From a virus (taxonomy: Duplodnaviria > Heunggongvirae > Uroviricota > Caudoviricetes), in the IMG/VR virus record IMGVR_UViG_2718218139_000008: a stretch of 63,885 nucleotides of DNA; one strand, written 5' to 3'. Positions 21,001 through 24,000 of the stretch are shown here, piece after piece. The position numbers were made by a program. Each line of letters starts with the position of its first letter. Within the stretch, counting starts at the first letter, position 1.

Positions 21001-24000
21001 TTTATACCCGCCGTACACGGTGTCGTACTGGGTAGCGTATGTATTTTTCCAGTAATACGTCGTGTCACCACAAATCCACGGCACATCTGCAGCACTGCCA
21101 CCATGGCACTGCGCGTTAAACACGGAGAGGTCAGCACGAAACTGTGTCAGCATGGCTGTAAACAGCGCAGGTTGCTGTGCGTGGGTGGCGGCGCTCATGT
21201 CAAACTCTCCCTGCATCCAGCACACCGCCAGCAACACATTTTTCGGGTTCTTCTGTAATGCAGCTTTAGTGCGCGCAATCAGGTCCTGATATAACGGTTT
21301 ACCCACACCCCAGCGTGCCGAATCCTGGCTGGCCCCCGTGTCCGCACTGAATGTCCCCTCCGCGCCCTGGGTGAATGCCGAACCACCACGACAGCATGGT
21401 ACCAGCAGGATCCCCGCGTTATTCGGGATATACGGAAGCAGTTTTTTGGCAATATGTAAGCCCTGGCCGACACAGCCGTACTGCCCTTTGCTCAGGTCTG
21501 CCTTCGGATGATTCAGCGTACTCATATCCTGCACATCATGCAGACAGTGGTCAGCCGGGATGATGTCGTTATACGTACAACTCTCTCCACCCGGAGTTAC
21601 CGTGCTGCGGCGCGCCAGCTGTTTAATGCGCGGATCCGGAGCATCGTAAGAATCCGGTAACGGAAGCCCTTCACCGTAGGCCATGCCGTTGGACTGTCCG
21701 GCAAGCACAACCACGTAGAACCAGTCCGGCTCAGATGAAGGGCCGACCTGTGGATCTCCTTCAATAGCCACCGCCTGCATCAGTGTGTACGGCGTAATGG
21801 CAACCGGTCCGCCATATGGCTGCCAGCCCTCTTTCAGTTTGTGTGTCAGCTTTTCCGCAAGGTCTGACGGCGACGCCGCCCTGACAACATCATAATGTTT
21901 AAATGTCATTATTCCTCCCGGCCGGGATAGTGTATTAAATCAGATATGGAGTGGGCTGTAGTCCGGAAGCCTGAATGACACACGGGGACTACAGCCCAAG
22001 AAATGAAAAAAGGCCACGCAGTTGCGCAGCCTGATAAACCCTGGTTAAAATCCACACGATAACAACACAACAATATCAGTATCTCATGCTATTGCCCGAA
22101 CCCATTCGGGCATTTTTTACCCATAAAAAAGCCCCTCCGGAGAGGGGCATGTTTGCATGCACATTCTTTTTCTTGCATGGTGCCGGGTGCCTCCCGGTGA
22201 ATTCAGTATCAGCACCTGAATCCGCGATTATCCCATATACCTGGTTGCTGATCGCCCCTCCGCACAGGGGGATTCACCATGCAGAAGTGTTTTTAATAAA
22301 CAGCAAACAAAAAAATCAAGCATTATGCAGGCTGTTTCTTTTTATCACCGGCCACAGCAATACCACAATGCCGCAGACCAGCACCCCATCCGCCAGCACC
22401 GACATGATTCTGCTGGTGAAATCCACCATCACCACCAGAAACAGCAGGAGTGCAGCCACAGCCAGGCGCAGTTTTACCGTCACAGGTGATTCTCCAGACG
22501 AAGACCCAGAACACCGGCAATCTCTTCCAGCACCTTGCGCTCTTCCGGCTCAATTTCGCCGTCTGCCTCCGCAATGGCCACCGCCACATCCAGCACATCT
22601 TCCGCTTCACGCGTATCGTGTTTCACATCCTCAATCTCGCGTAACGCGGCACGACGACCAATTTTAAAATTGGTATCCAGCTGACCGATAATAGTTGCGC
22701 TAATCGCATTAATTTCCGAGGTAAACGCAGACAACGCAGGCTGATTACGTAAGACCTGTTCGATCTTCGCTTTCTCGGATGCCTCGCATTCACCATCTGC
22801 ATAGGCCACCAGGTATGCAGCGTTAATCACCGCCTGTGCCAGATCGCGTTTCTCAAACTTTTTAATTTCCGCTGCCGCTCTGCGGGTTTTCTTTTTGAAG
22901 ATTCCAAACATCGTGACGTTCCTTTGGGTGGGTGAGCCAACGCCCGGGAGCGATCTGCCCACAGAGAAAGTCACACTGACCACTCCGTAAGCTCACCCCC
23001 GAAAGGCTCTGTGGTTGATATGCGCCGGGCGTGGCGCAGATACAAAAAAGGCCCGCCGAAGCGAGCCTGGAAAATAAGTGTGGCGCGTTGTAGTGGAGTC
23101 GAACCACTGACCGATTGCTTAGAAGGCAATTGCTCTGTCCGGCTGAGCTAACAACGCAGAATACCGATAATGGACCGCCATCGGGGACCCGCCCCCGCAC
23201 CAACAACCCTGTTATGGTGTCGTCTGCTCTTCCTGATAAGCTAATGGCGGTTTGTGATGGTGGCCCTTGCTGGATTTGAACCAGCGACCTGGCGATTATG
23301 AGTCGCTCGCTCTCACCACTGAGCTAAAGGGCCGGGAGCCGGATAATAACGGTCCGTAATTAATTCCGCAATAAAAAACCCGCTCGGCGGCGGGTTGTAG
23401 AAATTCTTCTAACGTCAGGCATAAAACGCCCATCGTTAGGGCAAATTTACCACAGATTCGGGAAAAATCAACAAAGCTATCTGGTCACCTTTTTCAGTTG
23501 TTGTTCTGCCCATGCTTCTTCAATATCAAACTGCACCACCAGCGTATCGTAAAAACGTTTAACTGTTTTTTTCCATGTATCAAGAGATATGGCATCGGTC
23601 ACATTACATATGGCATTAAATGCCTCCGTTGAAGGTAATCTTTCATAGCCACGACCACCACAACGCTGGCAGTCTCTGATAACAGGCATACCACGTTTTA
23701 CCGACTCTTCACGATGAATGGCAACACCGCGCCCACGACAATCTTTACAGGCGGTGGAAACCTCCCCCTTCCCTCCACACTCCGGACAGGCAACTTTTAC
23801 CACCTCCCTGACTTTTTTCCATTCCTCCCAGTAAGACGGATACACGCCTTTTGTGCACTTTGCCCACACTGGCGGCTTACCATCCGGATACTGGATCTTG
23901 TTTGTAAAAACCTCGCTTTCAATAAATTTTTTTCCGTGACAACAGGGGCACTGTTTTTTGCTCGCCGCGCTACGGGCATAATCTTCAAACGCATACGAAG

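Follow-up and report, generated by a model that had tools for sequence, protein, structure and literature searches.

The subject of this report is a pair of coupled genes, tciA and tciB, found in the late region of one of two prophages (prophage A; the other is prophage B) in a 63,885-nucleotide stretch of viral DNA (Caudoviricetes; IMG/VR record IMGVR_UViG_2718218139_000008), hereafter the window. Sequence comparison indicates that the locus is a phage accessory operon, and we consider it moderately probable that its products are a membrane-associated accessory pair that serves the lytic cycle and not lysogenic conversion. An earlier note on this DNA had viewed the pair as a candidate module for lysogenic conversion or defence; the comparative evidence moves its likely role from there towards the lytic cycle. 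Both the pair and the slot that it occupies are already known and annotated, and the finding is ordinary for that reason. A structured RNA leader that precedes tciA may be the sole new element.

Both open reading frames (ORFs) lie on the minus strand, exactly as the earlier note had described them. tciA runs from an ATG at 22911 to a TGA at 22482-22480 and encodes 143 amino acids (aa), with AAAGGAA located 9 nucleotides (nt) ahead of the ATG. The tciB ORF, of 55 aa, begins with a GTG at 22483, ends with a TGA at 22318-22316, and has a GGAG positioned 8 nt ahead of its start codon. The GTG of tciB overlaps the stop codon of tciA (GTGA) inside CTGTGACG, and this stop/start overlap supports the predicted translational coupling of the small membrane ORF.

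The assignment of TciA to the TerB family was upheld by profile search: Pfam TerB (PF05099) matched residues 26-138 with 60.2 bits (cut-off, 24.4; E = 2.9e-16). The TciA sequence also matches Klebsiella TerB in the Protein Data Bank (PDB; entry 2JXU) over residues 14-137 (E = 4.4e-8). TciB matched Pfam DUF3927 (PF13064) with 62.3 bits (cut-off, 25; E = 4.3e-17), and the two proteins belong to PHROG 632 (TciA) and PHROG 1470 (TciB). An AlphaFold2 (AF2) model of TciA, built with 23 homologues as input, reached a predicted local distance difference test score (pLDDT) of 88.3 and a predicted template modelling score (pTM) of 0.82. When this model was compared with PDB structures using Foldseek, the top match was 2H5N (probability 1.00; template modelling (TM) score, 0.55-0.62), and 2OU3, a COG3793 tellurite-resistance protein, also ranked high (probability 0.92), with E-values that are weak for these matches (0.012-0.5). 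The modelled fold of TciA is thus all-helical and, in keeping with the earlier note, TerB-like.

TciA contains two acidic ‘ADGE...E’ motifs, one per half, and residues D39, G40, E46, D117, G118 and E124 are invariant or nearly so among the 23 homologues. The N-terminal helix (MFGIFKKKTRR...) has a net charge of +7, and the protein beyond residue 22 has a net charge of -13. Family, helical fold and paired acidic DG...E motifs are shared with the TerB proteins of ter clusters (2JXU; terZABCDE of the IncHI2 plasmid R478); unlike these, the gene in the window is stand-alone and phage-borne, and it is accompanied by a tiny membrane partner instead of TerC, TerD or TerZ. The hydropathy profile of TciB shows two peaks, at residues 5-21 and 29-47, with DFTSR between them. 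A TerB-like domain and a transmembrane anchor are also found in DjlA and YebE/DUF533, where they are parts of one protein; TciA and TciB would match this arrangement as two polypeptides, with the anchor encoded by a separate gene and no J domain. TciA scored 23.9 bits against DUF533, under the cut-off, and 28.6 bits against DjlA, far under the cut-off, values that denote resemblance and not membership.

We identify the pair as tciA/tciB because of its Pfam and PHROG matches, its similarity to the P1 genes, the annotations given in phage records and by the Prokaryotic Genome Annotation Pipeline (PGAP), and the TerB-like fold. Hence, the suggestion that it was an unrecognised module did not stand: these are the tciA and tciB genes of P1, and they are routinely annotated. 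GenBank records of phages Evi, PPyecE_EH1910 and JLK-2012 (90-97% nt identity) label them TciA/TerB-like and TciB, and the identical proteins of E. coli O157:H7 are named ‘tellurite resistance TerB family protein’ (WP_000466957.1) and ‘DUF3927 family protein’ (WP_000216636.1) by PGAP. Of the 5,426 complete E. coli genomes, 788 carry the PGAP-annotated pair, as judged by a match to at least 80% of an 801-nt query spanning tciAB.

TciA shares 42% identity with its P1 counterpart, and the match to P1 TciB extends over residues 21-51. The P1 tciA-tciB-tciC genes (NC_005856) are alike in combining a TerB-type TciA with a tightly coupled DUF3927 TciB near phage tRNA genes, and in being accessory; the P1 genes are non-essential. 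They differ in that tciC has no equivalent in the window, where a tblastn search of 22330..22100 with P1 TciC gave a 6-residue match only (E = 0.23). They also differ in location and upstream sequence: the P1 copy belongs to the C1-controlled ban operon and has no structured leader, whereas the copy in the window lies in a Q-dependent late region and has one.

Among 73 IMG/VR loci in which TciA identity is 97% or higher, the GTGA junction does not vary; tciB is intact in 71 and disrupted in 2, with its variation concentrated in the C-terminal third. A scan of viral contigs with alignment A1 recovered near-identical E. coli copies only. More widely, the junction is GTGA, TGATG, TAAATG or a gap of 3-4 nt in 10 phage contexts, plus further loci. 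The junction is TGATG in P1, where a TciA-type gene is followed by DUF3927, and also in Pseudomonas phage nickie; it is GTGA in Klebsiella phage 5 LV-2017 and TAAATG in the virulent N4-like phages Pollock and FSL SP-058. In the Erwinia jumbo phage ChrisDB the coupled small ORF has a marginal DUF3927 match (14.0 bits, E = 0.053). Directly adjoining pairs were also detected in several Pantoea, Serratia, Klebsiella, Citrobacter and metagenomic loci. Altogether, a small membrane ORF that overlaps the TciA-type gene or lies 0-4 nt from it is found in lambdoid, P1-like, N4-like, jumbo and Pseudomonas phages.

In Pseudomonas phages AF (L009:1932-2153) and Ebordelon (L011:1943-2146), DUF3927 is replaced by a coupled, single-helix membrane protein of 67-73 aa that belongs to another family, with the motif C..YG.QTERET.Y..FVGCMV. 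In phage AF this ORF is unannotated and begins at a GTGA overlap. The presence of a different coupled membrane protein in these phages fits a need for a membrane partner. Two other candidates were discarded. Database proteins in which TerB and DUF3927 are fused (P0124 and P0186) were considered as Rosetta-stone evidence; double frameshifts appear to mark their junctions, and for this reason the fusions are probably sequencing or annotation artefacts. A 247-aa membrane protein encoded upstream of DUF3927 in phage 434 was considered as TerB-like and rejected, as profile comparison gave a probability of 0.08%.

Between distant copies, the ratio of nonsynonymous to synonymous substitution rates (dN/dS) was 0.04-0.45 for tciA and 0.17-0.69 for tciB, taking only the comparisons in which synonymous sites, often saturated, were not so. 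These values indicate that purifying selection acts on both genes. They bear on the idea that the pair might be a non-functional remnant carried along by recombination, an idea that can invoke the damage caused by the insertion sequence IS600 downstream in prophage A and the disrupted tciB copies mentioned above. With dN/dS below 1 for both genes, saturation of synonymous sites notwithstanding, and with pair and coupling kept across unrelated phage groups, a remnant is largely refuted and we give it hardly any credence.

In six unrelated contexts tciAB lies within ~0.6 kb of phage tRNA genes: P1 (L004), JLK-2012 (L001), L006, ChrisDB (L008), nickie (L013) and the window. In both JLK-2012 and P1, genes for tRNA-Asn(GTT) and tRNA-Thr are located upstream of the tci genes. 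This proximity may reflect common plasticity zones or co-transfer.

The boundaries of the DNA that carries the pair were defined by blastn comparison of the two prophages. Positions 23336-23044 of prophage A correspond to 49603-49313 of prophage B, and positions 22301-20013 correspond to 49263-46970. Between them, 742 base pairs (bp) in prophage A (23043..22302) correspond to 49 bp in prophage B, which confirms that the latter lacks tciAB at the equivalent locus; its tRNA genes lie at 49351-49600 and its esterase gene at 48861..47011. The resulting cassette contains the leader, tciA and tciB only, and its right edge lies 14 nt past the tciB stop. A 31-aa ORF at 22323..22228, which overlaps the tciB stop, was considered as a possible tciC and showed no similarity; we treat it as spurious because it crosses the junction between cassette and backbone.

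The order of genes around the cassette (Q, terminator-like sites, tRNAs, the pair, the esterase gene and the holin-like ORF) agrees with the late layout that the earlier note had read, and so does the location of the pair in the slot used by stx genes. The match between the window and the Shigella phage 75/02 Stx restarts at 22296, ~95 nt past stxB, within a few nt of the position at which homology to prophage B restarts (22301). Because of this coincidence, we regard tciAB and stxAB as alternative cargos of one junction. In Stx and lambdoid phages, as here, the slot follows Q and the tRNAs and precedes convergent small RNA (sRNA) genes, here STnc100 and AgvB, and the esterase gene; the difference is the cargo, which is stxAB in Stx phages and tciAB with its own structured leader here. 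STnc100 and AgvB are part of the backbone common to prophage B and Stx phages and lie outside the cassette. STnc100, which is full-length, begins 5 nt past the tciB stop and finishes at a terminator at 22148-22131; the tciAB transcript may read into STnc100, or be processed there. The slot itself is published as the moron site 3' of pR' in lambdoid and Stx phages, with its convergent-sRNA arrangement (Tree et al. 2014; PMC4104026).

An identical cassette is found in E. coli O157:H7 RM8376 behind another Q-type gene (DUF1133), and therefore the cassette moves between phage backbones. A lambdoid moron, as reportedly defined by Juhala and colleagues in 2000, is additional DNA that separates genes lying next to each other in a related phage, and is said to have its own promoter and terminator and a deviant base composition. 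The cassette is extra DNA in this sense, with 742 bp against 49 bp in the related phage, and terminator-like sites border it on both sides. Its G+C content, 52.8% compared with 51.1% in the flanking region, is not deviant. A crude consensus scan detected no sigma-70-like promoter on the coding strand from 24400 to 21800. Neither terC, terD nor any other ter gene was found near the pair.

A tentative scheme for the action of the pair is the following. The Q-antiterminated late transcript would carry tciAB; the structured leader would probably gate its translation, as the conserved CCUUU of the leader can pair with the Shine-Dalgarno (SD) sequence; and stop/start coupling would give a fixed TciA:TciB translation ratio. 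The two proteins would assemble at the inner membrane, on its cytoplasmic side; TciB would serve as anchor or partner, and TciA as a TerB module that binds metal. Acting in lytic growth, they would most plausibly shield the membrane of the infected cell, until programmed lysis, from threats such as superinfecting phage, pore-forming colicins or abortive-infection effectors. This protective role, which echoes phenotypes attributed to ter clusters, is proposed with low confidence.

A function in lytic growth is suggested because strictly virulent phages keep the pair, which in the N4-like phages Pollock and FSL SP-058 lies inside an early/middle gene block. It is suggested also because the P1 copy, tciABC, sits in the C1-repressed ban operon under the control of a C1 operator, and because P1 tci transcripts have been measured during P1vir infection and TciA peptides have been detected in P1 virion preparations.

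The view of the earlier note was that the pair is a candidate module for lysogenic conversion or defence. Such an anti-phage module would be expressed in the lysogen and protect the host from other phages or colicins, as plasmid ter operons do. This accords with the reviewed literature, in which the ter clusters to which TerB belongs are tied to phage inhibition and colicin resistance. The terminator-like sites that flank the cassette are as expected in an autonomous moron, and the tciABC region varies among P1-like phage-plasmids. Direct support was not obtained, however. No model of PADLOC-DB 2.0 was matched (the best TciA hit was PDC-S48, with 14.5 bits and E = 0.0035 over 35 residues, and TciB gave nothing), the scan mentioned above showed no promoter-like site, the other ter genes are missing from the vicinity, and strictly virulent N4-like and jumbo phages retain the pair without a lysogen to convert. 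We consider this explanation unlikely.

Other observations weigh against a lytic-cycle membrane pair. Some TciA homologues have no adjoining small ORF (Vibrio K480 and L194), and phage 434 has DUF3927 without TciA. The absence of a promoter comes from a crude consensus test, and a promoter inside the conserved leader is possible; expression in lysogens is known for other late-region morons. That TciA and TciB interact physically is deduced from gene coupling alone. The P1 tci names were given by homology alone, and all three genes of P1 tciABC scored as non-essential in a CRISPR interference (CRISPRi) screen. The literature searched contained no experiment on the function of TciA or TciB; searches on DUF3927, on TerB together with anti-phage activity, and on morons together with riboswitches yielded no functional study, and a review and two genome papers state that the role of the tci genes is unknown.

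The pair might instead regulate the timing of lysis, with TciB as a two-helix membrane hairpin, similar to class II holins or antiholins, that would join TciA in modulating when the holin is triggered. TciB is like small holin-type proteins in size and topology, and in several lambdoid phages, among them Pantoea L190 and Klebsiella phage 5 LV-2017, the pair lies directly upstream of holin and endolysin genes. In P1 and in N4-like, jumbo and Pseudomonas phages, however, the pair is away from the lysis genes, and in the window the esterase gene and two sRNA genes lie between the pair and the holin. Such a regulator seems improbable to us. We attach even less probability to a determinant of resistance to tellurite or metal stress, equivalent to the ter operon, as membership in the TerB family and the ‘tellurite resistance’ annotations might suggest. 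That name has been carried over by homology from a multi-gene operon. The cassette holds no other ter genes, and TerB by itself is not known to confer resistance. The occurrence of the coupled genes in temperate, phage-plasmid, N4-like and jumbo phages argues for a role in the lytic cycle and thereby offers a way to test what the long-unexplained TerB domain does.

The leader of tciA, ~105 nt long and present in a single copy in the window, is better conserved than the tciA gene itself. In its helix c, positions 23014-23007 are paired to 22966-22959 (CCACAGAG with CTCTGTGG); in its helix b, positions 22998-22990 are paired to 22938-22930 (GGGUGAGC.. with ..GCUCACCC), and a distal extension of helix b covaries. 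Helices c and b, both supported by covariation, cross, which is the topology of a pseudoknot. Between their 5' arms lies a nearly invariant CCUUU (anti-SD, 23006-23002), complementary to the SD (AAAGG, 22925-22921 in the window) in 60 of 60 distinct sequences; a compensatory change is found in one of the sequences, where CCUAU is paired to AUAGG. Helix c appears in several variants: CCGUAGAG/CUCUACGG, CCGCAGA/UCUGCGG, CCUCAGAG/CUCUGAGG, CCAUGGAG/CUCCAUGG, CCAAAGA/UCUUUGG and GAAAGU/ACUUUC.

In an alignment of 32 sequences made with MAFFT only, the covariation score was 0.120, compared with 0.070 ± 0.007 in shuffles (0 of 500 reached it), and 92% of cells were paired, compared with 37-49% for slid partners. 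In an alignment of 60 sequences fitted to helix b only, helix c was 94.8% paired and no shuffle attained any of five measures; these figures come from sequences that are related to each other and from an alignment that is partly model-fitted. Alternative structures were discarded. Helix d (UUCGGGGGUGA with UCGCUCCCGGG), which would take the place of helix b, is paired in 87% of cells, a value that is not above shuffles. The crossing helices c and b replaced a nested structure obtained earlier with RNAalifold. A ribozyme like that of hepatitis delta virus (HDV), with crossing of the P1/P2 type, was also considered; the leader lacks both a G·U where helix c begins and a short P3 with a 7-nt loop. 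Comparison with Rfam 15 gave no match at the gathering score, only chance-level hits at E up to 10, and no ribozyme hit.

The leader precedes both the TciA type of the window and the P1/Klebsiella type with ~78-90% nt identity, while the respective proteins are only 42% identical. It is also found in Erwinia and Salmonella jumbo phages, and elsewhere it precedes a ~280-aa secreted NMT1_3-like binding protein and a 146-aa secreted ORF. A diverged leader in E. coli O157:H7 RM8376 (L003:12406-12523) lies between a lysozyme gene and an antirepressor gene; it shows compensatory changes in both helices, and the arrangement of terminator and small hairpin is present upstream as well. Another diverged copy (L211:3719-3815) precedes an ORF. 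Upstream genes were checked for copies L190, L282 and L309, all of which lie 3' of Q-type genes. A genome scan with 17-mers gave mostly chance matches, and the complete leader motif in 5 loci (L107, L127, L139, L142 and L153). No leader was found in the Stx phage examined, in P1, in N4-like phages or in phage 434.

We read the leader as a putative portable translational control element. It resembles SD-sequestering riboregulators (riboswitch platforms and RNA thermometers) in having a conserved anti-SD in a covarying fold directly 5' of the start codon; it differs from them in that it has no Rfam family, its helices cross, and it is portable between unrelated phage cargo genes. A wider proposal, which we put forward as possible rather than probable, has two parts. 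One is that the leader represents an undescribed class of pseudoknotted, SD-sequestering cis-regulatory RNA, located in lambdoid prophages of several enterobacterial genera and in Erwinia/Salmonella jumbo phages, that would subject varied late cargo (tciAB, the NMT1-like protein, the antirepressor) to signal-gated translation. The other is that TciA-TciB would be a lytic-cycle membrane module of temperate and virulent phages. A leader common to unrelated cargo genes suggests joint post-transcriptional control of late-region morons and, if the proposal is true, would affect the expression of cargo from this slot upon prophage induction in pathogenic E. coli.

The features of this part of prophage A are listed in Table 1.

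Table 1. Features of the tciAB region of prophage A, with coordinates in the window.
Feature	Position	Strand	Basis
Q antiterminator gene, 273 aa	23477..24298	-	Pfam PF03589 Antiterm, E = 4.7e-50
Two terminator-like hairpins 3' of Q, putatively tR'-like	23443-23427, 23396-23377	-	Consensus scan
tRNA gene, CAT anticodon (Met/Ile2)	23258..23333	-	Met by ARAGORN; identical gene is tRNA-Ile in PGAP
tRNA-Arg (TCT)	23081..23157	-	tRNA call
Terminator-like hairpin and T-run directly 3' of tRNA-Arg, left cassette edge	23049..23068	-	Consensus scan
tciAB cassette, 742 bp	22302..23043	-	blastn, prophage A vs prophage B
Structured 5' leader of tciA, ~105 nt	22912..23019	-	Conservation and covariation
tciA, stand-alone TerB-domain protein, cytoplasmic, basic N-terminal helix and acidic body	22480..22911	-	Pfam, PHROG, PDB, AF2
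tciB, DUF3927 protein, two hydrophobic helices	22316..22483	-	Pfam, PHROG, hydropathy
STnc100 sRNA	22119..22311	-	Rfam RF02076, 145.8 bits
AgvB anti-GcvB sRNA, convergent with STnc100	22057..22118	+	Rfam RF02702, 96.5 bits
NanS-p-like SASA-family esterase, 616 aa	20059..21909	-	Pfam DUF1737, SASA, DUF6645
Holin-like ORF, 68 aa	19404..19610	-	PGAP class II holin

Downstream of the esterase gene, IS600, an element of the IS3 family (window ~17184..18340), splits the holin-like ORF from the lysozyme gene (~16637..16113). Because of this insertion, prophage A may be lysis-defective. The holin ORF of prophage B is cut short by another IS3-family element (45378..46534). Seven stretches of 89 nt with identical weak model scores, at 6212, 11263, 17198, 41554, 45392, 59899 and 62743, are probably copies of one IS element across the window.

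Two further loci were observed. In prophage A, a sok antitoxin RNA (Rfam, 113.5 bits; 26741..26915, minus strand) adjoins a 70-aa hok-like ORF (26803..26591) at a distance of a few kb upstream of the Q region. In prophage B, the interval from the Q-like gene (52315..51935) to the tRNA cluster contains a 237-aa ORF (49629..50342, minus strand) whose C-terminus appears AraC-like by eye.

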